Assembly (NCBI GenBank): GCA_963703285.1
Contig: OY969807.1
Span: forward strand, 1,120,001 to 1,184,000
Direction: 5' to 3'
DNA length: 64,000 nucleotides
DNA from: an uncultured Nitrososphaerota archaeon
GTDB lineage: Archaea > Thermoproteota > Nitrososphaeria > Nitrososphaerales > Gagatemarchaeaceae
This document shows, piece after piece, positions 14,632-41,016 of the stretch; the first letter of the stretch is position 1, and every line of letters starts with the position of its first letter. Position numbers and translations under genes: made by a program. The notes under the pieces are model-generated. The model was not told the DNA's origin. It was given only the letters and a program-made list of their open reading frames with translations, and did not search any database.

Positions 14632-14634
14632 AAG

Positions 14635-19303: not shown

Positions 19304-19412
19304 TTGCCGACCTTGCAGAATAAAAAAAGCGTCACTCTTGTTCACTGCGTCGGAATCGAGCCGACTCGATGTCATAGGGTTAATTAGTCCCGGCTTCCCA
19401 ATCCACTTCAGC

Positions 19413-19712: not shown

Positions 19713-19783
19713 ATGCCAATCCGTCGGTCAGGAAACTTCTCAGACAAGTTAACAGGATTCGCGATTAAGCGCTCGCTTGCTCT

Positions 19784-20044: not shown

Positions 20045-20051
20045 TCGCCAT

Positions 20052-20073
20052 GAAATAGTTCACAAGTTATTTC
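20052..20073. promoter_or_regulatory. candidate operator inverted repeat GAAATA-N10-TATTTC
   Basis: lies in the short divergent spacer between the HTH gene and the 20100 gene. Confidence 0.4.
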
Positions 20074-20099
20074 GGAATAGTTATCAAGAAGCTATCATA

Positions 20100-21832: not shown

Positions 21833-22152
21833 GATTAGATGTCGTAAGGTGACGCTAGCCTCGAATCCCCTGCCCCACCAGATGTAGGTGCCCCTCGACG
21901 CACACCTTCTTACCATGGATCGCGCCCCTTGTTTGCAGGTCGAACAGTCTGGACACGAGAACATCACGAGTGACGCCTAATGTTGGGTCGAAACTCTTGG
22001 CAAAATCAAGAATCTTGGCATAGGGCGGCGGGGCATACAACTTGACTTCACTCCCATCCACAACTCCAAGCGATTTCGCATACTTGATTCCCTCTCTCGC
22101 AATCCCGTGCAGTAGCTGGGCGTGGGCGAAGTGGTGGGGCTTGACCGTTAGA

Positions 22153-22638
22153 TCATGCGATAGGACAGCCGTCTACAATCTTGTCTCCGCTCTCGAGTCT
22201 CGGCAATGGGGCATCCATATTTGGCACCTTACTGCCAATACGGTGATGTTGGATTGTACTTGGATTTAGGAGTCTAAATCCGTTCTTGTGGCTGTCCTCC
22301 ATATTCGACGACTCTTCAGTAAATTGACAAAGGGTAATGGATCCATCGAGAGTGTGCCGCATTGACGACAGACTAGCAACAGCGTCGAATTTGCCATCTG
22401 CTAGAGCATCTCCTATGCCCTTGAGCAGAACCTTGTTCACTTCCCCTATTGTTGGGCACGCCGGGCCAGGGTCTTCTGCTTCCAGGATTGGCTTGAGTTT
22501 TTGCTCGACGTATTTCGAAACCGAATCGTCCCCCTTCCTATCCTTGATCTTGCGCAGACCATTCCGCGTTGTCTCGTCAAGAGACAGATTAACTGCCTTA
22601 TGCCCGCCATCTTCCGCTGGTCTGCCTCCGGTTGTCAT
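22153..22638 (-). CDS. protein with N-terminal ribbon-helix-helix-like domain
   Basis: HKAVNLSLDETT..L..SVSKYVE; divergent from 22669. Confidence 0.55.
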   Translation of the reverse strand: MTTGGRPAEDGGHKAVNLSLDETTRNGLRKIKDRKGDDSVSKYVEQKLKPILEAEDPGPACPTIGEVNKVLLKGIGDALADGKFDAVASLSSMRHTLDGSITLCQFTEESSNMEDSHKNGFRLLNPSTIQHHRIGSKVPNMDAPLPRLESGDKIVDGCPIA

Positions 22639-22668
22639 TGAGTTTCCTGCGCATGATTTTCCATATAT

Positions 22669-24255
22669 GTGCCTTATTACCCGAAAGACATGAACGCCGA
22701 CGAAGGAACAATCAAAGAGCTTGAGAGTCTCGGCAAGCGAAAACCACTGTCGAAAGAGGACCTCAACCGGGCCAAGGACCTGATGGTCGCGCTGAAGCAG
22801 CACGGGTACACGGTCGAGGAGATCGCCGAGCTCTCCGACGGCGGCTGGTCGGTCCCCTCGGTGAAGAACTATGTACGTGGCGTGAAGGTCCAGGACGCGA
22901 CCTCGAAGCTCAACCTGATCTCCTCTTTGAAGGAACTGTTGGAGAAGGGAATCGCATTCGAGCAGGTGACCTCGGTAGCCGGTGCTATCCAAGAGCTCGA
23001 CTCCATGGGCCTGTCGATCGGGGACGTGTCAGCGGTATTCACGGAGGCGGCCGAGGCACGTTACCCATTGAAACAGTTGTTGGACCTGCTCGAAGAGGCG
23101 AAGGGTTCCGGACTTTCGGCCCTTCGCATGGCGGACGCGCTCAAGTTCAAGGACCTGTGCGACTCCTCCGGAATCGGTTTCGATAGCATGGCCAGCTTCG
23201 CTACGAGCCTAAAGACCTACGGTGATGCCGATTCGATTCTCTCGGCGATCAACCAATACGGTTCCCTCGAATCGATTCAGGACGATGTTGCGAAGGCGAA
23301 GGAGCAGAAGGACAGACTCACCGGAGAGATTCACAAGGTGGATGGCCAGCTCAACCAGCTGAGGGCTAAACAAGCGGCAATAGAGCCTAGTATCCGATTG
23401 TACGAGAAGCTCCAGAAGGCTGGGTTCGACGAAGGAGCGTTGCGAGAGCTTGAGACATCATCGGCCAAGTACGAAGAACCCAAGACGCTACTCAGGGCGA
23501 TCAACGCTTTCGGGAGCTTGAGAGAGCTGGAGACCAAGGCGAAAGATGGGAAGAAGAAACTCATCGATGTGGAGACCAATCTGAAGCAGACCCAAGCCGA
23601 GTACAGTCACCTCATGCCGGTGATCCACATGCTCACCAGACTCCTATACGAGCTGAAGTTCAATCCAGAGCGGATTACCCAGCTTTACCGAATGGCCGAG
23701 GCCTACGGTGAGCCGCTCGAGGTGCTGGGTGCGATTGCCAAGTACGGGGATATCAAGCGACTGGAAGAAAGGATATCCTCGCTCAGAGAGACGGACGGCG
23801 AACTCGCGTTGAGAGAGATCCAGCTTAATGCCAAGCTGGAACAAACGCAGGGTCTTCTCGACGATCTCGGTTCAAAGATTCCCGATCTCACGAAGAGGAT
23901 TTCGGACGAACTTCACAATGCAATCAAGTCCATTACCTTTGAGGCGACAAAATACTCTGAAAACCTGGGAAGTCAGAAGGCCAACGCAGCTCAGTTCGCC
24001 GAGGAACTCAAGGTCGCACGCATATTGTTGACCATCGACAAATACCCGGGCGAAGCCGTGCACCTTCCCCTAGACTACGTCCTCCTCATGATGCGAGGGG
24101 TCAAAAGATACTGCCACACGAAAGAGCTTAACCCGAAAGTTGTGCCCGGCAATCTCGGGAAGAAGTACTGGTTCAGTATAGAGGACAAGGAAATTGAACT
24201 CTACGACCTCATAGACTTGGTCGAGAGAGGCCTGTCAAAACCCATCGGAGGATGA
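22669..24255 (+). CDS. HTH + coiled-coil protein with three ~80-aa internal repeats
   Basis: GYTVEEIAEL..SVPSVKNY; repeats AINQYGSL / AINAFGSL / AIAKYGDI. Confidence 0.75.
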   Translation: MPYYPKDMNADEGTIKELESLGKRKPLSKEDLNRAKDLMVALKQHGYTVEEIAELSDGGWSVPSVKNYVRGVKVQDATSKLNLISSLKELLEKGIAFEQVTSVAGAIQELDSMGLSIGDVSAVFTEAAEARYPLKQLLDLLEEAKGSGLSALRMADALKFKDLCDSSGIGFDSMASFATSLKTYGDADSILSAINQYGSLESIQDDVAKAKEQKDRLTGEIHKVDGQLNQLRAKQAAIEPSIRLYEKLQKAGFDEGALRELETSSAKYEEPKTLLRAINAFGSLRELETKAKDGKKKLIDVETNLKQTQAEYSHLMPVIHMLTRLLYELKFNPERITQLYRMAEAYGEPLEVLGAIAKYGDIKRLEERISSLRETDGELALREIQLNAKLEQTQGLLDDLGSKIPDLTKRISDELHNAIKSITFEATKYSENLGSQKANAAQFAEELKVARILLTIDKYPGEAVHLPLDYVLLMMRGVKRYCHTKELNPKVVPGNLGKKYWFSIEDKEIELYDLIDLVERGLSKPIGG

Positions 24256-25169
24256 AGATGTCTCTCGATGATATCAGCCGCAGTCTGGCAGAGATGGATG
24301 CGGTGAAGAATTACGAGACCATATCTGAACAATTGAAGCAGAGTCAAGCTAGGAGCGAAGCTCTCACGAAGGAGGTTGAATCCCTCAAGCAGAAGGTGAC
24401 GGACCGCACTAACACTGCCGTGGAGCTGGGCTTGAAGGTCAATCTTTCTCTTGAAAGACTGAAACAAACGAAGGAGGAGAACGAAGCGCTGCGAGACCAC
24501 GTTCTCATTCTAGAAGACTTGGAGGCCACGACCGATGGGAAGAATCTTCCAGAGGTCCTTGACGCTTTACTCAAACTGAACGCTGCTGAAATCGAGAAGA
24601 GAAGCAAGGATCTTGCGATTAAATTGCACAACAAATGGGAGAAGAATGAACGGCCGAAGCAGGTCATGGAAGAGGCCGCTTCGTTTCTCAAACAGACTCT
24701 ATCAATCATAAACTCGGGCTCGAGCGACTTCGGGAAGGATCTTACACAGGTGGGAATTCCAGACTTGGTGAAAGCGGTCCTGGAGTCGGAACACAAAAAG
24801 AGGATTGATGAGGAGTTTCTGAAAGGGGTCGATGTCGAGTCCACCAAGATTGCGGGGGGCAAGCTGGAGAAGCTTAAGACGGAAGCCTGGCCGAAATTCG
24901 TCAAGGAACAGGTAGAGCCAAAGGCTTCAGAGCTTGCAACTATTCTGCACGATCAACTCGTGAACTTCCTCTCCGGAGAGTACTGGTTTCGATGTGACAA
25001 GTGCCAAACGGAGGGAAGCTTCAGACTTCTTCCCGAGCATATAGCTCAAATGTTGATGGACGGGTGGTTCAAGATTCAATGCGGGAATGAAGCGTGCCGA
25101 GACCCATTTGGGAGGCACGAAATCAAGCTTAGCGTTGTCGATTTTATCACGAATCGATTACTCCCATAG
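24252..25169 (+). CDS. coiled-coil protein with C-terminal Zn-binding motif
   Basis: overlaps previous stop; CDKC..CGNEAC..H. Confidence 0.7.
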   Translation: MKMSLDDISRSLAEMDAVKNYETISEQLKQSQARSEALTKEVESLKQKVTDRTNTAVELGLKVNLSLERLKQTKEENEALRDHVLILEDLEATTDGKNLPEVLDALLKLNAAEIEKRSKDLAIKLHNKWEKNERPKQVMEEAASFLKQTLSIINSGSSDFGKDLTQVGIPDLVKAVLESEHKKRIDEEFLKGVDVESTKIAGGKLEKLKTEAWPKFVKEQVEPKASELATILHDQLVNFLSGEYWFRCDKCQTEGSFRLLPEHIAQMLMDGWFKIQCGNEACRDPFGRHEIKLSVVDFITNRLLP

Positions 25170-27692: not shown

Positions 27693-28631
27693 ATGATGTC
27701 AGAGAGCCAGTATCGCCCCCTAGGTGCCTCACGAATAATGGTCTCTCCCCTCGGCACCGGGACCAACAGGTGGGCCCAAGGAAAGAACGACGAGGCCGTT
27801 TTCCAGACCTTTCGATCCCTTGTTGATGCCGGGGTGAACTTCTTTGACACGGCTGAGGTCTACAGCATGGGAAAATCCGAGCGCCTCCTGGGCGCCTGTC
27901 TCCAGCGGGACCCCCGACCGGTGGTGATCGCCAGCAAGTTTGCGCCGTACCCCACACGCCTCTTCCGCCGTCAGTTCATGCGCGCCCTGGACGCCAGCCT
28001 GATGCGTCTGGGCAGGCAGACGGTCGACCTGTACTACATCCACTTCCCCAATACTCTGCTAAGCATCGAAACCCTGATGGACCTGATGGCGAAAGCAGTC
28101 GCGGCGGGCAAGGTCCGTGCGGTGGGCGTAAGCAACTTCAGCGCCGAGCAGATGCGCAGGGCCGCGACCCGCCTCGAGCGGTACGGCATCCCTCTGGCCG
28201 CGAACCAGGTTAGGTACAACCTGCTACATCGCCAGCCGGAAGAGGATGGTGTTCTGGCTGCCTGTCGGGAACTCAACGTCGCCCTTGTGGCCTATCGTCC
28301 GCTGGAGAGGGGACGACTCAGGTCGGACATCATCCCAGGAGCGGCGTCCGATTCGCTCTCCGCGGTAAGTAACAAGGGCAAGGCAGTTGCAAAAGAAGAG
28401 GCTATCCAAGAGACGCTCCACGCGATTGCGGAGCAGCGCGGAAAGAGCGTCAGTCAGGTCGCCCTGAACTGGCTCCTGCGCAGAGACGAACACGTGATAC
28501 CCATTCCGGGCACCACAAATGCGCGTCACGCGCTAGAGATTGTCGATACTCTCAAATGGCAACTCAGCGAGGACGAGTTTGCAGCCATCGACCATGTTTC
28601 CTCGCCGGCCCCGGGCATCTCGGCCTCCTGA
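27693..28631 (+). CDS. aldo/keto reductase
   Basis: FDTAEVY, SLMRL..VDLYYIH, AVGVSNF, IPIPG. Confidence 0.92.
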   Translation: MMSESQYRPLGASRIMVSPLGTGTNRWAQGKNDEAVFQTFRSLVDAGVNFFDTAEVYSMGKSERLLGACLQRDPRPVVIASKFAPYPTRLFRRQFMRALDASLMRLGRQTVDLYYIHFPNTLLSIETLMDLMAKAVAAGKVRAVGVSNFSAEQMRRAATRLERYGIPLAANQVRYNLLHRQPEEDGVLAACRELNVALVAYRPLERGRLRSDIIPGAASDSLSAVSNKGKAVAKEEAIQETLHAIAEQRGKSVSQVALNWLLRRDEHVIPIPGTTNARHALEIVDTLKWQLSEDEFAAIDHVSSPAPGISAS

Positions 28632-28634
28632 AAA

Positions 28635-28723
28635 GGCACCCGCGGCGCGGCGGCCACGTAGCCGGCTGCTGCTTCGCTCTGGGCGAGGACGGCGAAGAGG
28701 TCCACATCCAGCGGATCACTTGA
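28635..28723 (+). repeat. degenerate tes 3'-end copy
   Basis: GT..RGGHVAGCCFALGEDGEEVHIQRIT*; begins 4 bp after the AKR stop. Confidence 0.92.
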
Positions 28724-28777
28724 TGGTGCCCCTAGACACTGACGAAATTCATATATGCGAGATGCGATAGTTACGAA

Positions 28778-29479
28778 GTGATGGGCCTGGGCAGCGGTAA
28801 CAACGCGGTTCTCGTCAGCGGTTGTAAGAGTCTGCAGAACCTGACTGTGGACCTGTGGGTAACGGAGGACTTGGTCACGCTCGGGAACAACGGATTCTCG
28901 CTCCAATTGAACTGCTATCCGCAGACCAACCCCCAATCTACCCATGAGGGCACGCCGCTGAATTGGATTCAGTACGTCATCGCGGTAGTAAACGACTCGC
29001 TGGAGTGGGGGATCCAGTACTGGTCCCAGCCAAAGGGTTTCGGTTACAGCCCTAGTCCAAATTACGTCTCATTCGGCTCTGCCCCATCGAACCAAGTGCT
29101 CGCAGGCTCGGTGATGAGGATAGCGCTCATCACTGATTCCGGTGACAATGTGACACATGCGACATTCAGCGTTACCGATCCCAAGGGCAAAGTTTCCAGC
29201 CACACGTTCGCGTTCCCGTCTAACGCCTTGTCTGCGATCTATGGCTTCCAGGTCGATCTCGTAGGACCGCCCAGCGGCACCCACAGCTGCAACTTCACGT
29301 CGGGAGCGGGGACCCTGACCTACGCGGTGGGTCCCTCAGGGACGCTTGCGGTACAGACCACCAACACGTGCGGCGGCAGTCAGCCCGGCACGGCCGAGAC
29401 GTCCAATTCCAAGTACGGCACTGTCAATACAGTCGTCATTATAGTTCTAACCATACTGATTCAATCCGTATCAGTCTAA
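28778..29479 (+). CDS. hypothetical beta-rich protein
   Basis: long ORF rich in Ser/Thr/Gly, GFSLQLNCYP. Confidence 0.55.
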   Translation: MMGLGSGNNAVLVSGCKSLQNLTVDLWVTEDLVTLGNNGFSLQLNCYPQTNPQSTHEGTPLNWIQYVIAVVNDSLEWGIQYWSQPKGFGYSPSPNYVSFGSAPSNQVLAGSVMRIALITDSGDNVTHATFSVTDPKGKVSSHTFAFPSNALSAIYGFQVDLVGPPSGTHSCNFTSGAGTLTYAVGPSGTLAVQTTNTCGGSQPGTAETSNSKYGTVNTVVIIVLTILIQSVSV

Positions 29480-29849
29480 TCCCAGCCCAGAGGCTGAACG
29501 ACACCCGCGCGCCATCCACGAATCAAAATTACACAAAGCGTGTTCTATGCGCGATACCGTCAAGATAAGAGAGTGATTATGGCTAGGAGGACGCCCTTCG
29601 CATTCATTTGATGCTCCTCTTTCCTTTGTCCGTCAGCATCCACTGATTCTGCCTTCCGACCCTTTTGCCCTTGACAAGACCCTCTGAGACTAATTCGTAC
29701 AAATGAAGCTGGGCCGTGTTCCAGCTCTAAGGGATCGCCTTGGCACTCATCTCCGTCTCTATTGGCCAGGCTTCCGTCAGCAAGTAGGCGACTACCTATC
29801 GAATTTGTAAGCTCATTTTCTGTGGTTCTGTTTCGGTAAAGGAGGAAAA

Positions 29850-29930
29850 GGCACACACTTGGCATGATGTGATTGTGCTCTCGGCGAGAACGCCGAGGAA
29901 ATCCATATCAAAGCGATGGCTGGCACTTGA
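29850..29930 (+). repeat. degenerate tes 3'-end copy
   Basis: GTHLA*CDCALGENAEEIHIKAMAGT*. Confidence 0.9.
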
Positions 29931-29945
29931 GCCCGGGCGTGGCTA

Positions 29946-30380
29946 TTGCGGCCTAAGGTTCAGGTAGTTTTCGACTCCAAGGATCCCGAGCGTTTAGCTT
30001 CCTTCTATGCCAGGGCCCTAGGCTACAAGCTGCAGGAGCCACCCAAGCCCTACGCGTCCTGGGACGAAGCTCAGAAGGACTGGGGCATCCCCGAAGAAGA
30101 CTGGCACGACTGGGCGGCGATAGTCGACCCCGACGGGACGGGCCCTCGCATCTACTTCCAGAAGATGGACACCCTGAAGACCGCAAAGAACCGGCTCCAC
30201 ATCGACGTGAACGCGAGCGAAGGGCACACCGCCTCTCCCGAGAAGCGCAAGGAGCAGGTCGGGGCCAGGGTGGACTACCTGAAGTCGCTCGGCGCGAGCC
30301 GACAGGGCGAATTCGACGAGAACGGTGACTACTGGGTCGTCATGCTCGACCCCGAAGGCAACGAGTTCTGCGTCCAATAG
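29946..30380 (+). CDS. VOC/glyoxalase family protein
   Basis: DPERLASFY, KNRLHID, WVVMLDPEGNEFCV. Confidence 0.9.
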   Translation: MRPKVQVVFDSKDPERLASFYARALGYKLQEPPKPYASWDEAQKDWGIPEEDWHDWAAIVDPDGTGPRIYFQKMDTLKTAKNRLHIDVNASEGHTASPEKRKEQVGARVDYLKSLGASRQGEFDENGDYWVVMLDPEGNEFCVQ

Positions 30381-30408
30381 GTCTGGCCCGCGTTGCCGTC
30401 TGCGAATC

Positions 30409-30468
30409 GGCTGCGGGCTTCCCTAGAACGGCGAAGAGATACACATCCAGCCCATCACCGGGAGCTAG
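30409..30468 (+). repeat. degenerate tes 3'-end copy
   Basis: GCGLP*NGEEIHIQPITGS*. Confidence 0.9.
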
Positions 30469-30782
30469 GCTGCAACATATTCCGCTGACAAATTCTGCTG
30501 ATCCCCGCTGATCGTCTTCTCACGAACTAACTTTTACAGACCTTGAGGGCCGCGCGCTTTGCGGGAGTCAGGGGCCGTCTGGATGGCTATCTTGCCCCCT
30601 CAAGACCGGCCCTTGCCTGAACACTCGATGTGAGCGTAAAGGGATTACGGCGGTTGTTCCTTACCCCGTCGGGAAGCCAGACAGCGGAGGCTTCTGTGGT
30701 GGAGGAACTGGCTTCGTTCGGGAGATACGTCGAAGGGTTGCCTCGCTCGGGAAGTTCCAAGCTTAATTATCAGGGGCACGCA

Positions 30783-31886
30783 GTGATTCTGTTGAACCCC
30801 AAGTCAAGAAGAGCGGGCACAAAGTCGTCGGTCGCCGGCCTCCACGAGGAGGTGGCGAGGAAGGTGATTTCTGATTCCCTTCACCTGAAGAAGGGAGAGT
30901 CGGTGACGGTCGAGACCTGGAACAACGGGTTGCCGATGGCCCTTAGGTTTGTGGGCGAGGCGAGAAAAACCGGGGCCATCCCGCTCATGCTGTTCGAGGA
31001 CGAAGACACCTATGTCTTCGGCGTGAAGAACGCTCCGAAGGAAGGCCGCGGGAAGATGGGAAAGCACGAGCACGGACTCCTCGCAGCCTCGGACGCGTAC
31101 TTCTTCATCCCCAATGAGCTCCTCGAAGGATACACGAGGAGGATTACTCCGGACGAGGTCGAAGAGGCGACGGCCTACGGCGACTCGTGGTACGAGGCTG
31201 CTCAGAAGGCCGGGCTCAGGGGGGCGAGGATGAGCTTCGGCTTCGCGGGGAAGGAGCTCGCGAGGCTGCTGGGCAAGTCCCTCGAGGAGATAGAGGTCCA
31301 TCAGCTCAAGGCTGCACTAGTCGACTTTGGCTCGATCAGAAGGGCAGGGAACGGGCTGGCATCGCGTCTCCCGGACAGCGGTTCCGGCTCCCTCACCTCA
31401 CCCGGTGGTTCGCACCTGAGGTTCGAGTTTGAGCGTGGCGTGCACCTCGAGGACGGCATCGTCGATGCGAAGGACGTCGCAACGGGGCACAACATGACCT
31501 ACCTCCCACCCGGGTTTCTCAGGAAGAGCATCAGGCCGGAGTCGGTGAGCGGAAGTGTGAAGCTTTCGCCTTCGATTGGCTGGACCGGAATCATCGGTGA
31601 CGCGACGCTGGACTTTGAGAAGGGACGACTCGTCGGGTGGAAAAGCATTTCATCGAAGCGCATGCTGGACGAGGCCATCGAGGACCAGGTCGAGAGCGAA
31701 AGGATGGTCAACGCGTTGACCATCGGGCTCAACCCGCTGATGCGCTACGGCTACGGTCAGGACAGGTTTGTGGCCGGTTCCATAGGCGTCGCGGGATTGT
31801 CCTTCACTGGCATCGTGAGGAGCGGCACGCTCCGGGCGGGCCACTCGGTCGTCGTGAATAAAGGGCGACTGGCTCTTCCCTCCTAG
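30783..31886 (+). CDS. M29 aminopeptidase-like protein, metal ligands apparently missing
   Basis: SLHLKKGESV N-terminus, LDFEKGR, IGLNP; TATA-like box ~30763. Confidence 0.65.
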   Translation: MILLNPKSRRAGTKSSVAGLHEEVARKVISDSLHLKKGESVTVETWNNGLPMALRFVGEARKTGAIPLMLFEDEDTYVFGVKNAPKEGRGKMGKHEHGLLAASDAYFFIPNELLEGYTRRITPDEVEEATAYGDSWYEAAQKAGLRGARMSFGFAGKELARLLGKSLEEIEVHQLKAALVDFGSIRRAGNGLASRLPDSGSGSLTSPGGSHLRFEFERGVHLEDGIVDAKDVATGHNMTYLPPGFLRKSIRPESVSGSVKLSPSIGWTGIIGDATLDFEKGRLVGWKSISSKRMLDEAIEDQVESERMVNALTIGLNPLMRYGYGQDRFVAGSIGVAGLSFTGIVRSGTLRAGHSVVVNKGRLALPS

Positions 31887-31951
31887 CTCTGCGCTTCATG
31901 CTGAAGCAGGGCGCACCCTCATTTTTTACCGGCCCAAGAACATTGCAAGGC

Positions 31952-32160
31952 ATGCCCCCGGAGGACGGGGCCCGGATTGAGGCCAAATTGAGGAAAATCG
32001 AAGCGACCATCGCACACTTGCAGAGCGGGAGCAACAGCTTCTCGAGGTGATATCTGCACTTACGAAATCGACGATCTCCGAATCGCCTGCGTAGCTGCAA
32101 CAGCCCGAATTCAGTGAGAGGGCCCTGGACAGAACCTCATCCGCATCGGCGGCTTCGGGA
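31952..32160 (+). pseudogene. decayed paralog of 39098..39508
   Basis: MPPEDGARIEAKLRKIEATIAHLQ, frameshift, ESPA*LQQPEFSERALD, internal deletion, LIRIGGF. Confidence 0.8.
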
Positions 32161-32236
32161 GGGCTGGCCCGGGAAATAACTTCACAGAAATACGACAAGC
32201 TGGGCGGCCCCATGAGAGCGAGGAATCGCCTGAACC

Positions 32237-32333
32237 AGGGGTAGCGCGGAGAGGCGACCACGTCGCGGGCTGTGGCTGCGCCCTCGGAGAGAACGGCGAG
32301 GAGATCCACATCCAGCCAATCGCCGGTACCCAG
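32237..32333 (+). repeat. best-preserved tes 3'-end copy
   Basis: RRGDHVAGCGCALGENGEEIHIQPIAGT(Q). Confidence 0.95.
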
Positions 32334-32418
32334 TTGGTTACTAGTCCGCCCCCGAGCTTGGCAGAGCGTTTTTGGTTCGAGGGGAATCACTCGCCTGCGT
32401 GAGGTCGGAGGAGCCCTT

Positions 32419-33285
32419 TCACGAGCTGAAGAGCAACGGAATAATCCTAAGGTCACCGCGGCGGAGGAAGATCCTATCCAGCTCCTGGTTCTCTTCGTCG
32501 GTGAGCCTCCAGTCCGTCGAGCCGAGGTTCTCCTCAACGTGCGCCGCGTGGGATGCCCTCGGAATCGGGAAGACGTTCCCCTGCGAGAGCAGCCAGTTGA
32601 GAGCCACTTGGGCGGCGGTCTTCCCGTGCCTCGCCCCGATCTCCCGGAGCTTCGGGTCAGAGACGAGCTTCCCATGGCCCATGGGGAAGTAAGCGAGGAG
32701 TGCGACGTTCTCGTTGCTGCAGAACGGGAGTATCTCCCTCTCCATCCTCCTGTCCGCGAGGTTGTACGGCATCTGGATCGAGGCGATGCTGTGCTTCTTC
32801 ATCGCGTCCTTCGCAGCGATGGTCTGCTTGAAGGAGAAGTTCGAGATCCCGATGGAGCGCGTGAGGCCCCTGTCGACCATCTCCTCCAGGGCCCCCATGG
32901 TCTCCTTGATCGGCACGAACGGGCTGGGTTGGTGGACCTGGTAGAGGTCCACGTAGTCGAGCTCGAGCCTCTTCAGGCTCCTTTCGAGGGCCCTGACCAG
33001 CGCGTCGTGCCGCAGGTGGAGGAACATTACCTTCGTGGCGATGAAGAGGCCCTCCCTCTTTCGCCCGGATATGGCCTTCGCTACGAGCGGTTCGGAGTTG
33101 TAGACCTCGGCCGTGTCTATCAGCGTGATGCCTCCATCGAGACCCGCCTTGAGCGCCTCCACCTTTGATGACGCGCCTCCCCTGCTCCCGAGTCTGGCCT
33201 TGATGATCCAGGGGAAGTCGTAGTAGGTGCCCATCCCTATGGCGCTCACCTGCCTGCCTGTCGGGCCGAAGGGCTTGAGTTCCAT
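32419..33285 (-). CDS. aldo/keto reductase
   Basis: IDTAEVY, IATK, SLKRL..VDLYQVH, IGISNF. Confidence 0.92.
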   Translation of the reverse strand: MELKPFGPTGRQVSAIGMGTYYDFPWIIKARLGSRGGASSKVEALKAGLDGGITLIDTAEVYNSEPLVAKAISGRKREGLFIATKVMFLHLRHDALVRALERSLKRLELDYVDLYQVHQPSPFVPIKETMGALEEMVDRGLTRSIGISNFSFKQTIAAKDAMKKHSIASIQMPYNLADRRMEREILPFCSNENVALLAYFPMGHGKLVSDPKLREIGARHGKTAAQVALNWLLSQGNVFPIPRASHAAHVEENLGSTDWRLTDEENQELDRIFLRRGDLRIIPLLFSS

Positions 33286-33440
33286 CTTGATGGATGCGGT
33301 TTTCCCGGTCCTTAAATCGGCTCTGGTTGCTCGACTTCGGAGACCTGGTAAGAGTTCCAGCCATTCATCCTCCACTTCGTCGGCCGCTCTTCGAGCCGTC
33401 GTAGCGCCTCGGGATTTCAGCCCGAGGTTCGTCGCAGCCT

Positions 33441-33505
33441 ACGGGCTACCAGCGGCCGTGATCCAGTAGTGCGGCGAAGAGATCTTGCTTAGTTGACGCC
33501 GTACT
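33441..33505 (+). repeat. possible highly degenerate tes 3'-end copy
   Basis: exact GGCGAAGAGATC core at 33473 with weak flanking similarity; intergenic. Confidence 0.35.
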
Positions 33506-33549
33506 CGCCTGTTTTGCAAGTCTTATAAGTAAGTGGGAATCGTTGTGGG

Positions 33550-33801
33550 ATGGGAACGGTTATGGGAGAGGCAGTGATCGACGGGAGAGGCAGAATAGTC
33601 ATACCTAATGAGATAAGGGAAGAACTCAAGTTGAGACCCGAGCAAAAGCTGAGAATATCGACGAAGGGGAAGGAGCTCGTGCTCTCGCCAGAGATTGAAG
33701 CGGACGAATTCATCTCCCAACTGAAGGGGTGCGTCCATGGTTCGGGAATCAAGCCAGAGGATCTAAAGACCATCTGGGGTGTCGACCATGCTCATCATTG
33801 A
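33550..33801 (+). CDS. AbrB/MazE-type antitoxin
   Basis: IDGRGRIVIPNEIREEL. Confidence 0.88.
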   Translation: MGTVMGEAVIDGRGRIVIPNEIREELKLRPEQKLRISTKGKELVLSPEIEADEFISQLKGCVHGSGIKPEDLKTIWGVDHAHH

Positions 33802-34213
33802 CACGAACATCTGGGCCTACTATTTCGACAGGGACTCACCGGAGCACGGATCCGTCGTCGCACCCGTTGAGGAGGCCCTCAGGTCAGAGCAGATAGCCAT
33901 CAACACGATAGTAATCATGGAGTTGGCGCATTTTCTCGTCAAGAACCTCGGCCCTGTTGATGGCGGCGAAAAGCTCGGGGTGTTCCTTCGTTTTCCCTTG
34001 GCCATATCCGAATTCGACTACAGGACCGCTCTCGATTCTGTGGAGATGCTCAAGAGATATTCCCACCTGGGCGTGGGCGGCAGGGATGCGACAATACTCG
34101 CCCTGATGGACAGGGCCAAGGTGAAGAAGATCATGACTCATGACGCAGCTCTGAAAAGAGTTGACTGGTTGGAAGCCACGGACCCGGTCATAAAGCCGAG
34201 AGAAAGTGAATAG
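33788..34213 (+). CDS. vapC: PIN-domain VapC toxin
   Basis: IIDTNIW, E, RDATILA, MTHD acidic PIN residues; overlaps antitoxin. Confidence 0.88.
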   Translation: MLIIDTNIWAYYFDRDSPEHGSVVAPVEEALRSEQIAINTIVIMELAHFLVKNLGPVDGGEKLGVFLRFPLAISEFDYRTALDSVEMLKRYSHLGVGGRDATILALMDRAKVKKIMTHDAALKRVDWLEATDPVIKPRESE

Positions 34214-34344
34214 AGAGGCCACCGAGGCCCGGTCCGTGCGCAGGTCGCACGGGGCAGAGCGGCCGGTAGGGCTGGGTCGTCACGTTCTACGGATAGCCGT
34301 GGGCCCTTGTCCCTTGCACCTGCCATAGGGCCGGGCTGACGCAA

Positions 34345-34599
34345 CTAGGTCATCTTCTTCGTCTCGTACATCTCGGCGTTGGGAAAGGACAGCTCAACCT
34401 TCGAGGTCGTATGAAAGAGGAAGCCCTTGTAGCTCGTGAGGTACTGCCAGGTGGGGCTGAAGCCGAGCTGTCCGGGTCTGCTGAAGACCACGACGGGATC
34501 CTGCATGCTACGAACGATACGATTGAATACGACAGAATCGACCGTGACCTTGTGCCCGAGGACGGCTTTCGCCCTCGCCGCATCTCCTCCGCTTTCCAA
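34345..34599 (-). CDS. hypothetical protein
   Basis: YLTSYKGFLF motif; upstream AT-rich box. Confidence 0.5.
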   Translation of the reverse strand: MESGGDAARAKAVLGHKVTVDSVVFNRIVRSMQDPVVVFSRPGQLGFSPTWQYLTSYKGFLFHTTSKVELSFPNAEMYETKKMT

Positions 34600-34642
34600 G
34601 CCGCCCCTTGAGGAGGCGCTGCCCCATTAATATCTTTGGAAG

Positions 34643-34724
34643 AGTGGCGACCTCGTCCCCGAATCCCGGAGGTCAGGAGAGCACGACAGCCAAAGTCCGC
34701 CGCAAGCGGATCGCAGGCACCTAG
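34643..34724 (+). repeat. highly degenerate tes 3'-end copy
   Basis: AGT GGC GAC CTC GTC..GGA GAG CAC GAC..CGG ATC GCA GGC ACC TAG (SGDLV..GEHD..RIAGT*). Confidence 0.55.
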
Positions 34725-34813
34725 AACCTGAAGGTGGGAGAGTTCACACTGTCTCCCTGACCTGAATCACCTCAACCGCCTTCCCTCCGCCACCTTTACA
34801 AAGCCGCGGACCA

Positions 34814-35140
34814 GTGTCAGGAAGGCGTCCCTTGTCTGAAATCGAGACCTTCTTTCGGCACTGCCCCGCCTGCGGAAGGCGGTTTGAAGTAAGACTGGTG
34901 GGCAAGAAGGTGGTCAGCGACGAGGAACACGAGTCCGAAGCGCCAGTGGAGGTTCCTACCGCCTTGCGCTCGACGCCCGCACTCTTTCTCCCCGTCACGC
35001 TGGATGAGGAAGTGCCGACCCTCGTCAACAGGGACGAGTTCCAGTACTCATACGTCTGCAAGCACTGCGGTCACCGCTGGTTGGAACTCCGCACCAAGAC
35101 GAACGAGATGAATAGACCCAAGGGCTACGAGGGTGACTAA
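34814..35140 (+). CDS. Zn-ribbon protein
   Basis: CPAC..YVCKHCGHRW. Confidence 0.7.
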   Translation: MSGRRPLSEIETFFRHCPACGRRFEVRLVGKKVVSDEEHESEAPVEVPTALRSTPALFLPVTLDEEVPTLVNRDEFQYSYVCKHCGHRWLELRTKTNEMNRPKGYEGD

Positions 35141-35155
35141 CTCGGCGGTCCTTAA

Positions 35156-35203
35156 GGCCGTGAGTGCGCCCTCGGCGAGAACGGCGAAGAGCTCCACAGT
35201 TGA
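35156..35203 (+). repeat. degenerate tes 3'-end copy
   Basis: GRECALGENGEELHS*. Confidence 0.88.
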
Positions 35204-35341
35204 CTGATTGCATGGAGGCTCTGGTGACGCAGGAACTGGAGATGGCCTGACCCGATAGTCAGCACCCGTCTCGGTGACCCTGCGGGCTACCAAAACCAAC
35301 GACTCGAAACGCGTATTAGCAAGAGAGAGTACATTCGGGAC

Positions 35342-36773: not shown

Positions 36774-36847
36774 CCGCCCTCCGACGAGAGGTGGCAGAAC
36801 AGTAATGCACAAGCGTTAAGTATTACCGATGTCGTATGTATTACGAA

Positions 36848-37102
36848 ATGTCCGAGGCGATTGTGTCAGTCACAAAGAAGGGACAGGCGACGATTCCAAG
36901 CAAGCTGAGGAAGAAACATGGGATAGGGAGGAAGGTGCTTGTCGTCGACACCGATGCTGGCGTGCTGCTGAAGCCCGTCCCCGACCCTCTTCTCGAGAAG
37001 GGGTCTTTGAGCAGGGTGTTTGAGGGGCAGGGTTCGCGCGACCTCATCGACGAGGCGAGGGCAGCCGAACGTTCCAGGGAACTCGCCGCCACGCGACGAT
37101 AG
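36848..37102 (+). CDS. AbrB/MazE-type antitoxin
   Basis: VTKKGQATIPSKLRKKHG; GTATTAC-like motifs at 18-bp spacing upstream (36802 inverted, 36820, 36838). Confidence 0.88.
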   Translation: MSEAIVSVTKKGQATIPSKLRKKHGIGRKVLVVDTDAGVLLKPVPDPLLEKGSLSRVFEGQGSRDLIDEARAAERSRELAATRR

Positions 37103-37107
37103 ACGCC

Positions 37108-37509
37108 ATGCAGACCGTAGTCTTCGATAGCCAGTCGCTCCTCAAGCTCTACCTCGGCGAGCCGGGTGCGGATGGCGTGGTGCGCCTGCTGAGGGAGGTC
37201 CAAGAAGGAAGACTCGAAGGACGGATGAGCATCGTTAATCTGGCTGAGGTCTACTACATACTCTGTAGAAGAAACAAGGAGATTGCCGAAGAGAAGGAGA
37301 AGAGGCTCAGAGAGTACGGCGTGGCCTTGGTTCCCGTGGACCCGGAATCGTCTCTATGGAAGAGAGCGGCCACGCTCAAGGCTGCGCACGGTATGTCATT
37401 GGCTGATGCCTTTGCTGCGGCGACGGCGATGGAGCTTCATGCAAGACTCGTGACTGGAGGGGATGCGGAGTTCGAGGACATTCCGGCGCTTAGAGTGGAG
37501 AGGGTCTGA
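37108..37509 (+). CDS. vapC: PIN-domain VapC toxin
   Basis: VVFDS, NLAEVYY, SLADAF, LVTGD.EF. Confidence 0.88.
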   Translation: MQTVVFDSQSLLKLYLGEPGADGVVRLLREVQEGRLEGRMSIVNLAEVYYILCRRNKEIAEEKEKRLREYGVALVPVDPESSLWKRAATLKAAHGMSLADAFAAATAMELHARLVTGGDAEFEDIPALRVERV

Positions 37510-39010: not shown

Positions 39011-39097
39011 CCCGGTCTAGACGGTCCCGTGCGAGCCAAAAAATGTTCCTGTGTTCCTGTCTTCGACATACACTAATCTACCCGCCCTAGGACTTCG

Positions 39098-39508
39098 ATG
39101 GAGATGCCGCCAGAAGACCAAGCTCAGATAGATGCCAAATTGAGGGAAATCGACGCGACAATCGCAGACCTGCAGAGGCAGAGGCGGGAGTTGCTCGGGG
39201 CAAGGTCGGAACTGAGGAAGTCAGCCGCGCCCGAATCACCCGCAGAGCCGCAGCGGCAGCCGGAGCCGAGCGAGAAGGCCATCGAGAGGGCGATGAACAT
39301 GCTCGAGTGGAAGGGATTCAAGAAGAAAGATGGCGAGTGGGCCTTCCTGAGGACCAGGGACGGCGACCTCGTCGAAGACCTCAAACCCATCGCGGGCTTC
39401 ATCGACCAGCTCCGGAAGGGCAGACGATTGGCGCTCGGCGAGTATGAGTACGTCGCCTCGGAGGACAGGTTTCTGAACAGATATCCCCGAGCGCCAAGCC
39501 AAAGCTGA
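39098..39508 (+). CDS. hypothetical protein with N-terminal coiled coil
   Basis: good codon bias; has a decayed paralog at 31952. Confidence 0.7.
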   Translation: MEMPPEDQAQIDAKLREIDATIADLQRQRRELLGARSELRKSAAPESPAEPQRQPEPSEKAIERAMNMLEWKGFKKKDGEWAFLRTRDGDLVEDLKPIAGFIDQLRKGRRLALGEYEYVASEDRFLNRYPRAPSQS

Positions 39509-39584: not shown

Positions 39585-39992
39585 CTAGGGGACTTCTTCG
39601 ATTGTCTGGCAGTAGTCTGTGATTATCCAGCCCTGCTGTCCGTCGTAGGTGCCGAACACGCCTCCGAATCCGTCCAACATGGGACCCGGAATCGAGCTCT
39701 GTGCGCCCGGGAAGAAGTAGGACGTCATGTTGCCGAAGGAGTCGAACAGGGTGCCGCCGCCCTCGAATCCGCTGGGCGCGACCCATGTGTTCCCGTACGA
39801 GTCCGTGAAGGTCGCACCCGTCGGCATGAGTGTTCCGCCGCCATTGAACGCGCAAGTAGTCCTGGTGGGCGGCGGTATCGCGTGTGATGCCGGAAGGAGC
39901 GTAAGGACCATTAGAAGAGAGAGGAGGACCATAGAGACGAGCGTCCTCGGTCCGGTGAAGCTCGACAGGGTGATTGAGTTGCTTGCACGCAT
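39585..39992 (-). CDS. putative secreted protein
   Basis: signal-peptide-like LLSLLMVLTLLPASHA; internal GGGTL..DS.GN repeat. Confidence 0.5.
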   Translation of the reverse strand: MRASNSITLSSFTGPRTLVSMVLLSLLMVLTLLPASHAIPPPTRTTCAFNGGGTLMPTGATFTDSYGNTWVAPSGFEGGGTLFDSFGNMTSYFFPGAQSSIPGPMLDGFGGVFGTYDGQQGWIITDYCQTIEEVP

Positions 39993-40371
39993 CAGGCGAA
40001 GATTAGCTCTTTGGGTTATTAAAACATGCGTCGAGGGCCCTAAGCTCTCGGTCTTCATTTTCCTTTGTTTCAGCGCGAGCCGTGCATCCATAAGATTGTA
40101 ATCCCGCCCCTTGACTAGCCGAGATTCGCGGCCGTGATGAGTGCGCGTTAAGCTCCTGGGAAGAATGGAGAGATAGCGCTGAAGACTGAGCCGCGGGCTT
40201 CCTGCAGCTAACACAGGATTTCCGATTGAGCAGAACCAGGGGCTTCGTGGCCCGCCGGGCGCCTAGTCGCTGCTCGGTTGGCGGCATTCCCCGGGGGCGC
40301 CGGATTAATCGAATCGTGAAGGCTCCTTCACCCTCGCCGGTATAACCTTCTCAGGCCATCGAGGAGCTCGT

Positions 40372-41016
40372 ATGTCGGATTTCGCGGCAAATTGGGACCA
40401 GGAGAAGAAGGGACCCGGGATAGGCCTGAGGCTGCGTGGCAGCGTGAACCAGGGGGCGCCGCTCAAGCCCCGTCTAGACGAGGCGAACCGCGAGATTCAG
40501 GCGGTAATTGCGAGACTCGACGGGACGATGGCGAAGCTGCGCGACAAGGACGCGAGCCTCTTCAACAAGATAGTGGTAGCGACGCAGAAGCGCGATTCCG
40601 CGCGCGCGTCGGTGTACGCAAACGAGCTGGGAGAGCTAAGGAAGATGAACAGGATGGTGACCCAGTCTAGGCTGGCCCTCGAGCAGATAAACCTCAGACT
40701 CAACACGATAACCGATCTGGGCGACATAGTGTCGACCCTCGCGCCGGCTACGTCAATCGTCAGCGGCCTCAGGCAGAGCCTCTCGGGACTTGTGCCGGAG
40801 GCAGAGAGCGGGATGAGCGAGATATCGAGCCTGCTCGGCGGTATCCTAGTCGACGCCGGGTCGGTGAACGGCTCCTCGATCGACTTCGGCATCGCCAACG
40901 CTGAGGCCGAGAGTGTCCTGTCCGAGGCTGCGGCCGTCGCGGAATCTAGGATGGAGAGCACGCTCCCCGAGATTCCGGCCACAGCTAGAATGTCAAGCGA
41001 GATGGAAGAGGCGTAG
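40372..41016 (+). CDS. cdvB: ESCRT-III / CdvB family cell-division protein
   Basis: PLKPRL..LFNKIV..YANELGELRKM..LEQINLRLNT..GD..LAPA. Confidence 0.85.
   Translation: MSDFAANWDQEKKGPGIGLRLRGSVNQGAPLKPRLDEANREIQAVIARLDGTMAKLRDKDASLFNKIVVATQKRDSARASVYANELGELRKMNRMVTQSRLALEQINLRLNTITDLGDIVSTLAPATSIVSGLRQSLSGLVPEAESGMSEISSLLGGILVDAGSVNGSSIDFGIANAEAESVLSEAAAVAESRMESTLPEIPATARMSSEMEEA

Follow-up and report, generated by a model that had tools for sequence, protein, structure and literature searches.

The stretch of archaeal DNA analysed here (the window, 64 kb) carries a gene for tetraether lipid synthase (tes), a radical SAM enzyme of 557 aa, at 5332–7005 on the plus strand. Its identity was judged with the NCBIfam equivalog model NF045702 (curated cut-off 450 bits), against which the product scores 691.9 bits; Pfam assigns it the domains Radical_SAM and Zn_ribbon_HMPTM. 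The 3' end of this gene is repeated downstream. The window holds seven tes-end copies, all direct and on the plus strand; five fall within 28.6–35.2 kb. A repeat search places the seven starts at 6919, 8450, 28643, 29844, 30382, 32247 and 35135. A search of the 2.25-Mb genome found all tes-end copies inside this window. An initial sequence-only reading had described the repeats between 28.6 and 35.2 kb, and they are real: their 29-nt core gives 5 matches at ≤3 mismatches against 0 in 100 shuffles, and the window copies have nhmmer E-values of 1e-15 to 1e-19. Their spacing, which that reading put at ~0.5–1.8 kb, is 1200, 539, 1864 and 2888 nt from start to start. Its remark that some repeats start ~4–30 bp past the upstream stop codon agrees with starts about 0–30 nt past the stops at 8446, 28631, 30380 and 35140. 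The origin of the repeat in the end of tes, with the first copy as the working gene end, was absent from it.

The first copy serves as the functional end of tes, and the later copies are former or imported ends that newer insertions have pushed downstream. The region is a stack of displaced tes 3' ends, and the DNA between two copies is what came with an insertion, or its remainder. The site itself measures ~48 nt, sharply bounded on the left and ending with the stop codon, and some copies reach ~100 or ~285 nt. The features are as follows.

5332–7005, plus strand: tes (NCBIfam NF045702; Pfam), of which the last ~48–100 nt are the repeated sequence.
6940–7005, plus strand: R0, the working tes 3' end, which doubles as the landing site (nhmmer E = 1.9e-19).
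7006–8537, plus strand: unit 1, with one 448-aa ORF (7100–8446) and the closing repeat R1 (8474–8537).
8538–28729, plus strand: unit 2, a 20-kb island with the closing repeat R2 (tes-like over 28621–28729).
17093–17560, minus strand: broken LAGLIDADG remnant, C-terminal part (blastp to a protein of the related genome G015; shared cluster).
18568–18768, plus strand: second LAGLIDADG fragment, inverted, 57% identical over 53 aa to 17093–17560.
28730–29931, plus strand: unit 3, with a 233-aa ORF (28778–29479) and the closing repeat R3 (29845–29931).
29932–30469, plus strand: unit 4, with a glyoxalase-like gene (29946–30380; Pfam Glyoxalase_6, E = 4.9e-25) and the closing repeat R4 (30404–30469).
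30470–32333, plus strand: unit 5, with a weak M29-like ORF (30630–31886), a fragment (31927–32025) and the closing repeat R5.
32334–35220, plus strand: units 6/7, closed by the last copy, R6 (35156–35220).
32419–33375, minus strand: aldo/keto reductase (units 6/7).
33550–33801: MazE/AbrB-like gene (units 6/7).
33779–34213: PIN gene (units 6/7).
34345–34599, minus strand: ORF (units 6/7).
34814–35140: Zn-ribbon ORF (units 6/7).

The genes that had been listed between the repeats are all present: the 233-aa ORF, the glyoxalase, the M29-like gene, the aldo/keto reductase, the AbrB-VapC pair (MazE/AbrB-like plus PIN) and the Zn-ribbon gene. The repeat implied between the reductase and the AbrB-VapC pair reduces to a 13-nt look-alike at 33472–33484, which is not significant (nhmmer E = 5.2). 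Family searches gave no family for the ORFs of units 1 and 3. Unit 2, whose G+C content is low (45–50%) as far as about 20 kb, encodes GmrSD, a D12 methylase, DUF7226, a helicase, an SMC-like ATPase, CHAT, HNH, GNAT and an aldo/keto reductase (27693–28631), and the fragment in unit 5 is a piece of a gene resembling 39098–39508. The unit ORFs lie on the plus strand in 8 of 10 cases. As for the copies themselves, R2 aligns by tblastn (28622–28720) with Tes residues 523–555 at 70%; R4 is of the short type and begins at the sharp left edge; R5 is tes-like over 32193–32333 and coding-like for 44 codons; and R6, where the tes match ends at about 35198, holds the left part of the site only. R1 is followed by a hairpin with an 8-bp stem and a T-rich tract, and a hairpin plus T-tract terminator is retained in some tes-end copies.

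Arrays of tes ends stand behind tes in most genomes of Ca. Gagatemarchaeum, a non-ammonia-oxidising thaumarchaeal genus, and on 40 of 59 soil metagenome contigs, with a maximum of 11 copies per 10 kb. Outside this genus tes is essentially single-ended. Across 76 sequences we counted 202 copies, of which 199 are co-oriented, and 123 spacings with a median of 834 nt (103 at ≤2 kb); large units reach 20 kb in the window, 37 kb in G014 and 48 kb in G018. The right edge of the repeats is the tes stop codon, preserved in most copies, and the left edges of 147 downstream copies cluster at 48–53 nt (22 copies) and 276–293 nt (15 copies), within an overall length range of ~40 to ~290 nt. Just past the stop, a hairpin with a stem of ≥7 bp occurs in 15 of 163 copies, against 1 of 153 controls located 250 nt farther downstream. 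Pfam-positive array ORFs in the relatives are found in both orientations. There, tes-like fragments extend to 120 codons. Those of ≥60 codons differ from the window's tes mostly at synonymous positions, with dN/dS of 0.05–0.27 where dS was computable, and therefore derive from working tes alleles. Some long fragments contain a stop or gaps.

Units are gained, lost and re-sorted at the tes-end repeats among related strains. The contigs L108 and L153 differ by the presence or absence of one ~510-nt unit with both boundaries within repeats, and the site borne by this unit runs exactly from the sharp left edge to the stop codon. Two strain variants in the G017 bin differ in one segment, replaced up to the start of the next repeat. 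The reductase unit of the window recurs behind a repeat in G014 (94% over 946 nt) and the M29-like unit ahead of one in G012 (82% over 1,144 nt); the same cargo is found in different arrays. The metagenome records L107 and L137, whose termini overlap exactly by 123 and 34 nt, are circular permutations of one three-unit cycle of 1,533 nt, and two of its units are seen separately in other arrays; these contigs could represent a circle or a tandem duplication. A read search over 5000–24999 gave no joints. Half-sites occur, a left half in the window copy at 35156 and a right half near position 305 of L107. Several copies match the tes end of another species better than the resident tes end, for example 28635–28719, with 86% identity to the tes end of G001 and 75% to the window's own. 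The view of the sequence-only reading that the units are too small to be autonomous is in line with these cases, in which they behave as exchangeable packets. That reading would have fallen if units were never shuffled among strains and each mapped to an integrase-bearing element; instead, units differ among strains and no array maps to such an element.

Neither IntI nor any other tyrosine or serine recombinase adjoins tes or lies within any array examined. A Pfam scan of the 94 window ORFs gave no Phage_integrase match, and scans of 94 + 64 + 104 + 101 + 22 ORFs recovered neither a recombinase nor a transposase family. Across 23 genomes of the genus PF00589 has 57 places, all of them outside the array stretches, and a six-frame search of the arrays of 23 genomes found no integrase and no integrase fragment. 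These searches are as sensitive as Pfam PF00589, PF16795 and PF00239 allow, and a recombinase of a novel family could escape them. The window's own genome has one PF00589 match (C1:1627840), 0.5 Mb away, and one resolvase match, 0.44 Mb away. This sole tyrosine recombinase, of 412 aa, belongs to a patchy mobile family found in 25 of 81 genomes of the order and occupies a 4.5-kb module of its own, which has no tes-like site in its vicinity. Modules exploiting Xer/dif, of the IMEX or pdif type, which rely on a housekeeping Xer recombinase and on a dif-like site whose arms are inverted, were considered and rejected in view of this patchiness and the lack of a consistent palindrome. The extremes of GC skew lie near 0.5 and 1.66 Mb, away from the array.

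The only recurrent DNA-cutting candidate is a LAGLIDADG gene resembling I-DmoI, found close behind tes in five genomes that represent four genera. It is convergent to tes and separated from the tes stop by about 85 nt (G033), about 100 nt (G030), 127 nt (G017 contig 10), about 160 nt (G026) and 758 nt (L127); the other two full-length close copies, in G015 and G014 (frameshifted), lie within tes arrays. The predicted protein of ~395 aa has two LAGLIDADG motifs and keeps both acidic residues in six of seven sequences, the seventh being the frameshifted G014 copy. Motif residues G194, D195, Q302, G303 and G309 show no variation, and six of the seven sequences have D308. Pfam LAGLIDADG_3 matches P0002 at E = 6.2e-08, and phmmer against PDB sequences gave no match. 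In the AlphaFold model (pLDDT 82, pTM 0.83) the chain is predicted to adopt the alpha-beta-beta-alpha-beta-beta-alpha double-domain fold which, with the two motifs and their acidic residues, characterises LAGLIDADG homing endonucleases. Foldseek places I-DmoI at the top of the matches (probability 1.00, TM 0.68 over the whole target), with WhiA also among them. The candidate thus shares fold, motifs and acidic residues with I-DmoI and other monomeric double-motif enzymes, cleavage being a prediction. Unlike I-DmoI, to which it is about 14% identical, it has an extra ~190-aa N-terminal helical domain, and its gene stands free behind a protein-coding gene rather than in an rRNA intron or intein. 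In G017 the gene constitutes a 1,435-nt presence/absence difference exactly past the tes stop, and beyond the insert in contig 10, on its far side, a piece of internal tes sequence is left over. The window remnant at 17093–17560 clusters with the LAGLIDADG proteins of G014, G015, G017 contig 10 and L127, and a genome search with the protein gave a match at G000:C1:1137279-1137581.

We tentatively favour, at somewhat under even odds, an endonuclease-driven replacement of the tes end, repeated over many rounds and with cargo, as in the mORF elements of fungal mitochondria. We infer that the driver is a free-standing LAGLIDADG homing endonuclease and not an integrase. The endonuclease would cut insert-free tes alleles at, or close to, their 3' ends, and homologous recombination with a donor would repair the break. 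The donor would bring an end to replace that of tes, followed by the endonuclease and/or cargo and, beyond these, an older tes end acting as right-hand homology arm. Each round would add one unit and one spare tes end. The endonuclease gene may subsequently decay and be lost, which would leave cargo-only units, and recombination between repeats may delete, duplicate or pop out units. If this is correct, the mORF mechanism has been iterated in an archaeal chromosome, where it carries defence, toxin-antitoxin and detoxification genes.

In the sections available of the account by Beaudet et al. (2013, PMC3630166), fungal mORFs, which encode LAGLIDADG or GIY-YIG proteins, carry an inserted C-terminal part of atp6, atp9, cox2 or nad3 and displace the native C-terminal part downstream. 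As far as those sections go, the tes locus resembles the mORFs of Allomyces (atp6) and Glomus (atp6, atp9, cox2, nad3) in that a LAGLIDADG-type gene adjoins a conserved gene at its 3' end, that the conserved gene is kept whole by a substituted C-terminal piece, with its former end lying downstream and non-functional, and that the two ends differ mainly at synonymous sites. The candidate endonuclease ORF lies 85–758 nt past the tes stop in relatives, and the window itself has only the two broken remnants in unit 2; the C-terminal part is duplicated, and the window holds six copies displaced downstream; and the differences between the two ends are those of working alleles. Unlike mORFs, the system is in an archaeal chromosome, the candidate gene is convergent to tes with no in-frame fusion, the event has been repeated up to 11 times, and most units are unrelated cargo without an endonuclease. 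Several results count against the endonuclease. Only 5 of 76 sequences carry the gene and most arrays are without one; none of the units between 28.6 and 35.2 kb has an endonuclease gene, and the 82%-complete genome G013 has 7–8 tes-end copies and no match to the LAGLIDADG protein. Conversely, G026, G033 and G030 have the gene behind tes but no duplicated tes end within 15 kb, so adjacency alone does not build arrays. Paralogues with 25–36% identity are found elsewhere in every genome, and the adjacency could instead be old synteny of a WhiA-like DNA-binding protein. Third codon positions within the site vary little, which is weakly significant (2.8% of random draws).

The main rival, possible but in our view unlikely, is a site-specific recombinase acting in trans, encoded by a virus, a plasmid, a larger element or a not-yet-recognised protein family. 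The ~48-nt tes end would be its attachment site, and small circles of site plus cargo would be inserted and excised. Such a system would resemble integron cassettes, streptococcal CIMEs or the cargo remnants in tycheposon islands. CIMEs at fda are a further case of tandem accretion at the 3' end of a gene. The left edge falls at the same few bases in independent copies, almost all copies are co-oriented, the unit distinguishing L108 from L153 bears an exact site, and half-sites exist. The sharp 48-nt edge and the cyclic contigs suit a site-specific recombinase at least as well as an endonuclease, though the cycles are equally explicable as tandem duplications. Arrays are confined to one genus although the tes end of its sister genera is nearly identical, as expected of a lineage-specific enzyme. 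Against this, no recombinase was found in or near >70 arrays, the genome's sole tyrosine recombinase is patchy and sits apart in its own module, none of the viral contigs searched carries the tes-end site, and repeat lengths from ~40 to ~290 nt are unusual for one integrase. A precedent exists in Thaumarchaeota, where the available text of PMC6563490 describes tandem arrays and integration into the 3' ends of protein genes (14 of 68 elements); tes does not appear among the integration targets listed in that text, where 'radical SAM' has 0 occurrences.

It is improbable that the arrays are passive wreckage, in which successive integrase-bearing islands at the tes 3' end eroded to remnants between att scars and nothing is mobile today. 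The large units beside small ones and the gene fragments (31927–32025; the LAGLIDADG remnants) would fit, as would the tandem accretion, decayed elements and partial target copies of tRNA islands described in the part of 10.1101/2020.12.28.424599 at hand. However, the six-frame search recovered no trace of an integrase, many units are 0.4–1 kb long with an intact ORF ending a few bases ahead of the repeat, a series of internal deletions is unlikely to have left both scars intact every time, and related strains differ by whole units. Still less probable is local duplication of the tes end by unequal crossing-over or replication slippage, with the LAGLIDADG gene as an unrelated conserved neighbour or regulator. 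The cyclic contigs are compatible with it and the gene adjoins tes in array-free genera, but the units between copies are mutually unrelated and differ in G+C, several copies are nearer to foreign tes ends, and the long fragments carry many synonymous differences. Least of all do we expect a true integron with IntI, attI and attC. Integrons have an intI tyrosine recombinase gene adjoining the array and attC sites that are imperfect palindromes conserved in structure, not sequence; their cassettes exist as excised circles, with mostly co-oriented, promoterless genes. The cassette-like layout that the sequence-only reading called integron-like stands, as does the exchangeability of the units: as in chromosomal superintegrons and in the integrons reported from Archaea, each small unit holds one to a few genes and is closed by a site-like repeat, and the array has a single fixed chromosomal anchor, with toxin-antitoxin pairs and detoxification genes in the cargo. 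The integron itself is rejected, because no IntI lies by the array and the sites are copies of a coding end conserved in sequence rather than as attC-like hairpins; cargo genes, moreover, lie in both orientations. Folded as DNA, the seven copies all differ (z-scores -2.25, -1.42, +1.73, -0.57, +0.84, +1.04 and -1.46), and no attC-like hairpin is common to them. Integrons have been reported in Archaea, according to the portion available of 10.1101/2022.02.06.479319.

Whichever enzyme acts, the arrays share features with the thaumarchaeal iMGEs (PMC6563490) and the tycheposon islands (10.1101/2020.12.28.424599). In both, as far as the excerpts at our disposal go, at least some of the units carry a tyrosine or serine recombinase; in the >70 arrays here none was found. 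As in those excerpts, the direct repeats are partial copies of the target 3' end in tandem, newcomers displace older units to positions farther from the gene, such sites flank non-autonomous units, and the cargo consists of defence and niche genes.

The repeats that delimit the units of this locus are copies of the end of a gene. A repeat search of the window returned seven direct copies, with the following starts.

6919 (+), first copy, the final ~65 nt of the radical SAM gene at 5332-7005 (557 aa)
8450 (+), second copy
28643 (+), third copy
29844 (+), fourth copy
30382 (+), fifth copy
32247 (+), sixth copy
35135 (+), last copy, left part of the site only

A 29-nt core recovered five matches in the window at three mismatches or fewer, and none in 100 shuffles. 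In the 2.25-Mb single-contig genome, copies of the repeat are confined to the window. The gene at 5332-7005 is assigned to Tes by the NCBIfam equivalog for tetraether lipid synthase (691.9 bits against a cut-off of 450). As the first copy is the 3' terminus of tes, the repeats represent spare tes 3' ends. Within 28635..35203, where the sequence-only reading had proposed integron-like cassettes, ORF and Pfam scans returned the gene contents it had listed between the repeats (a beta-rich protein, a glyoxalase, an aminopeptidase-like gene, an aldo/keto reductase, an AbrB-VapC pair with a hypothetical gene, and a Zn-ribbon gene). Four repeats start within about 0-30 nt of the upstream stop, as had been noticed. 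The proposed spacing of ~0.5-1.8 kb needs correction, with start-to-start distances of 1200, 539, 1864 and 2888 nt, and the repeat implied to separate the reductase from the AbrB-VapC pair proves to be a 13-nt look-alike (E = 5.2).

Aligned copies from many genomes share their right edge, which is the stop codon; TAA, TAG or TGA is retained in most. The left edge is variable. Of the 147 downstream copies whose left edge could be measured, 22 begin 48-53 nt and 15 begin 276-293 nt ahead of the stop, and a broad shoulder spans 36 to 107 nt; these counts are of non-independent events, with copies common to related genomes by descent. The tes fragments of at least 60 codons differ from the window tes mainly synonymously (dN/dS 0.05-0.27 where dS was computable), and some contain a stop or gaps. 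These long fragments are former pieces of working tes alleles. Third-position conservation within the site gives a weak signal. A perfect hairpin with a stem of at least 7 bp directly follows the stop in 15 of 163 copies, compared with 1 of 153 control stretches taken 250 nt onward and 1.7% of shuffles. This hairpin, often followed by a T-rich tract, looks like a terminator carried along with a working tes end. In two related genomes, G008 (L037 3170-4842) and G009 (L035 2846-4518), tes itself aligns as two or three frame-shifted pieces, which may reflect homopolymer error of long-read assembly and not real breakage.

No attC-like hairpins were found in the repeats: when the seven window copies were folded as single-stranded DNA, they had no fold in common (z-scores -2.25 to +1.73). 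Rfam gave no match to the window. A true integron was rejected, two defining tests having come out negative.

Comparison of related loci revealed differences that amount to single units. The sequence stretches L108 and L153, whose tes DNA is 91% identical, differ by one ~510-nt unit, with its own site spanning from the sharp left edge to the stop codon. In L108, the repeat and flank that lie downstream of it equal the working end and flank of L153. Two binned strain variants in the related genome G017 (contigs 10 and 14, 91-97% identical) show two differences, namely a 1,435-nt insert precisely behind the tes stop and a segment whose replacement extends to about 7 nt ahead of the next repeat. 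In G014, the reductase unit of the window recurs after the last repeat (94% over 946 nt), where the similarity is limited to the gene and excludes the spacer to the repeat, and the M29-like unit is found in G012 immediately ahead of a repeat (82% over 1,144 nt). The ~600-nt units of different genomes have only the tes-like part in common. Two stretches from different metagenome records, L107 (1,657 nt, with ends that overlap exactly over 123 nt) and L137 (1,567 nt, overlap 34), are circular permutations of one 1,533-nt cycle, the product of a circle or else of a tandem duplication. The cycle has three small units, together with two complete repeats and the right half of another, and two of its units occur separately in G019 (77%) and L133 (73%). 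Four soil runs of one study contain parts of the region. Placed on 5000-24999, they yielded short low-depth contigs and no joints; loose ends of read contigs at 6949 and 6982 belong to the contig of the copy at 35156. Units thus differ and recur among strains, which is contrary to the outcome named as fatal to the cassette proposal, in which units are never shuffled and always mark the end of an integrase element. We are highly confident that the locus is an accretion array of displaced tes ends that delimit exchangeable units, whichever enzyme is involved.

By pattern search, 12 of 61 related genomes have the site, and every one of the 12 belongs to the genus of the window (Ca. Gagatemarchaeum); none of 38 genomes outside this genus has it. 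Members of Ca. Gagatemarchaeum (Nitrososphaeria) are Thaumarchaeota that do not oxidise ammonia. With an nhmmer profile, at least two copies were found in 14 of 17 window and genome stretches and in 40 of 59 non-redundant metagenome stretches, the densest array holding 11 copies in 10 kb. Almost all copies are co-oriented (199 of 202, in 76 sequences), and their spacing has a median of 834 nt (n=123; 103 at 2 kb or less). We also searched 151 genomes of the order, including the window genome, with the last 67 residues of Tes; in this set, the genus is represented by the window genome and G007 only. A match was present in 124 genomes and was single in 120 of these. The remaining four are the window genome (five matches), G070 (three), G083, whose matches are two full genes located on two contigs, and G085, with one weak match besides the first. 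G070 was rejected as an array outside the genus, as its two extra copies lie on a 3.1-kb contig that is possibly mis-binned. In the sister genus, 17 of 19 genomes have a match with 74-88% identity over that stretch, each in one copy. The tes end as a target is therefore insufficient by itself to produce an array. No viral contig record contains the site. In the window genome, downstream synteny is too variable to define a native flank. A GNAT and cupin (MannoseP_isomer) pair is found repeatedly on or close to the far side of the arrays of G016, G018 contig 2, L104, L141, L157 and G011, with the cupin gene of G011 located between two repeats; this pair may be a native tes neighbour in that one clade.

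The search for an integrase in the window genome gave one PF00589 match (1.628 Mb), one resolvase match and no SSV-type integrase. The sole tyrosine recombinase carries a zinc ribbon at its C-terminus and belongs to a family that 25 of 81 genomes of the order possess, in many cases as a broken gene or on a small contig. It is encoded in a module outside the window.

L204 8364-12760, equivalent to about 1.627-1.632 Mb of the window genome contig (G000:C1), 4.5-kb module with the 412-aa tyrosine recombinase

The module also encodes a 324-aa Toprim-like protein (opposite strand) and a ~670-aa protein. It is common to the close relatives G021, G001, G014 and G015 (84-85% identity) with different flanks, has no tes-like site nearby and is probably a small mobile element. 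PF00589 matches occur at 57 places in 23 genomes of the genus, all of them outside array stretches. G013 and G009 (completeness 82% and 77%) possess arrays and have no PF00589 match. Pfam detected no recombinase or transposase family in the array ORFs (94 from the window; 64, 104, 101 and 22 from relatives and metagenomes), at a sensitivity that a non-Pfam family could escape, and NCBIfam, PHROGs and permissive Pfam revealed no recombinase among the unnamed ORFs. The position of the tes end (window 6940-7005, G000:C1:1126940-1127005) at 50.0% of the 2,252,123-nt contig prompted the idea of a Xer/dif site. This idea was rejected: the GC-skew extremes fall near 0.5 and 1.66 Mb, away from the array, the two cdc6 genes map to 1.64 and 2.14 Mb, and the only tyrosine recombinase of the genome is of a patchy, mobile type within a module of its own. 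As the skew extremes and cdc6 genes lie elsewhere, we treat the midpoint position as coincidence or assembly rotation.

Clustering of 499 array ORFs revealed a family of ~395-aa proteins with members in five sequences (G017 contig 10, G015, G014, where it is frameshifted, L127 and a fragment in the window). The family has two LAGLIDADG motifs, and the acidic residues are retained in 6 of 7 aligned members. For the AlphaFold model (pLDDT 82, pTM 0.83), the best PDB fold matches are the archaeal homing endonuclease I-DmoI (probability 1.00, TM 0.68 on target), followed at lower rank by intein endonucleases and the non-catalytic WhiA. The similarity is seen by fold search; phmmer found no match among PDB sequences. 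The gene is convergent to tes and lies 127 nt from its stop in G017 contig 10, 758 nt in L127, and about 160, 85 and 100 nt in G026, G033 and G030, respectively, which represent three further genera. Members are 27-52% identical to each other, while their Tes proteins are 84-89% identical to that of the window. All five full-length homologues with at least 47% identity lie behind tes or within a tes array, four short fragments are located elsewhere or on tes-less contigs, and paralogues of 25-36% identity are scattered through every genome. The 1,435-nt insert that is present or absent in G017 is the LAGLIDADG gene. At its far side, an internal tes fragment (about residues 487-499) is joined via short microhomology to a degenerate tes end, and this is the remainder of a displaced end. 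In larger units, a HerA-like and RecA/KaiC-like ATPase module is conserved in G014, G015, L127 and L099 and carries the LAGLIDADG gene in the first three; in G014 and G015, a retropepsin-like gene lies directly beside it. Retropepsin-like (gag-asp_proteas) genes of ~125 aa occur in or near tes arrays of the window (50693-51064, +), G009, G012, G014 and G015.

The explanation that we rank best, with a confidence that falls just short of even, is homing-type insertion with later recombination between the spare ends. The ranking rests on a four-part architecture matching that described for mORFs, mobile endonuclease ORFs of fungal mitochondria (PMC3630166). There, as in the tes arrays, a gene for an endonuclease adjoins the 3' end of a conserved gene, a replacement end preserves the whole gene, the old end is shifted downstream, and the two ends differ synonymously. 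In a fuller version of this explanation, which we hold less firmly, a homing endonuclease would land on the 3' end of tes, an essential lipid gene. Every round of homing would bring in a fresh gene end and leave a cargo packet behind it, and the stacked spare ends would provide homology for the shuffling, deletion and export of packets. Against homing, the endonuclease gene is missing from most arrays and from all units of 28635..35203, and three genera have the gene behind tes with no duplicated end within 15 kb. Moreover, the sharp 48-nt edge and the cyclic contigs suit a site-specific recombinase acting in trans at least equally well, although we consider it rather unlikely that such an enzyme moves the units.

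Two further explanations are less likely. Passive erosion of classical integrase islands could leave small units, but integrase remains are wholly absent and many units of 0.4-1 kb are intact, which makes it improbable. Local duplication alone would multiply the tes end in place; the contents of the units are unrelated and the tes ends look foreign, and we give this very little credence. There is a real chance that the locus is an integrase-free cassette system. The fuller version of the homing explanation, an integrase-free cassette system on an archaeal chromosome in which a homing endonuclease lands at the tes 3' end, cargo is deposited and spare ends drive shuffling, is a tentative proposal that we hold less firmly than homing as such. 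If correct, it would act as an integron that relies on the repair of double-strand breaks and not on site-specific recombination, and would be the first prokaryotic chromosomal counterpart of the mORF mechanism.

For Thaumarchaeota, earlier work describes tandem arrays as well as insertion at the 3' ends of protein-coding genes (14 of 68 elements), and these elements carry integrases (PMC6563490). In the available text of that study, tes is absent from the targets named and 'radical SAM' has 0 occurrences. We found no description of tes-linked arrays in the main texts searched, the Gagatemarchaeaceae genomics paper included. The routes by which uncultured soil archaea gain accessory genes are poorly understood. 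The tes locus provides a genus-wide, sequence-defined hotspot, which gathers small exchangeable units with genes for defence, detoxification and toxin-antitoxin systems. Should the LAGLIDADG enzyme be the driver of the arrays, homing endonucleases would build cargo arrays in cellular chromosomes, linking a fungal mitochondrial oddity to prokaryotic genome plasticity. If a trans-acting recombinase does so instead, the tes locus would be the place to find it. A first test is feasible with one protein and one ~50-bp site. The repeat may also serve as a probe for cassette diversity in soil metagenomes, while the tes 3' end is ill-suited to phylogenies of these archaea.

Between the second copy and 20000, the window has low G+C (45-50%) and is dense with defence-type genes.

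8538-20000, GmrSD N and C domains as two ORFs
8538-20000, D12 adenine methylase
8538-20000, DUF7226
8538-20000, ResIII/DEAD helicase
8538-20000, SMC-like AAA_23 ATPase
8538-20000, CHAT fragment
8538-20000, RNase H/PolB-exo-like ORF
8538-20000, HNH ORF

Shortly past the last repeat lies a second MazE/AbrB-like and PIN pair (36836-37509). Unnamed ORFs fill the space between this pair and CdvB (40372-41016). An element of ~80 nt at 40122-40202 (+) has counterparts at two places in G009 (88-91% identity) and at one in G012 (79%). It occurs once in the genome, has no Rfam match and overlaps a doubtful ORF (39585-40214, -). Its C-box-like GTGATGA, its D-box CTGA and a terminal stem of 6 bp mark it as a probable C/D box sRNA. 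Finally, 31927-32025 and 39079-39177 share 99 nt at 75% identity, the former being a fragment of a gene like 39098-39508. A full gene of this kind (72% identical) lies in G012, ~1.2 kb past the repeat that follows the M29-like gene.
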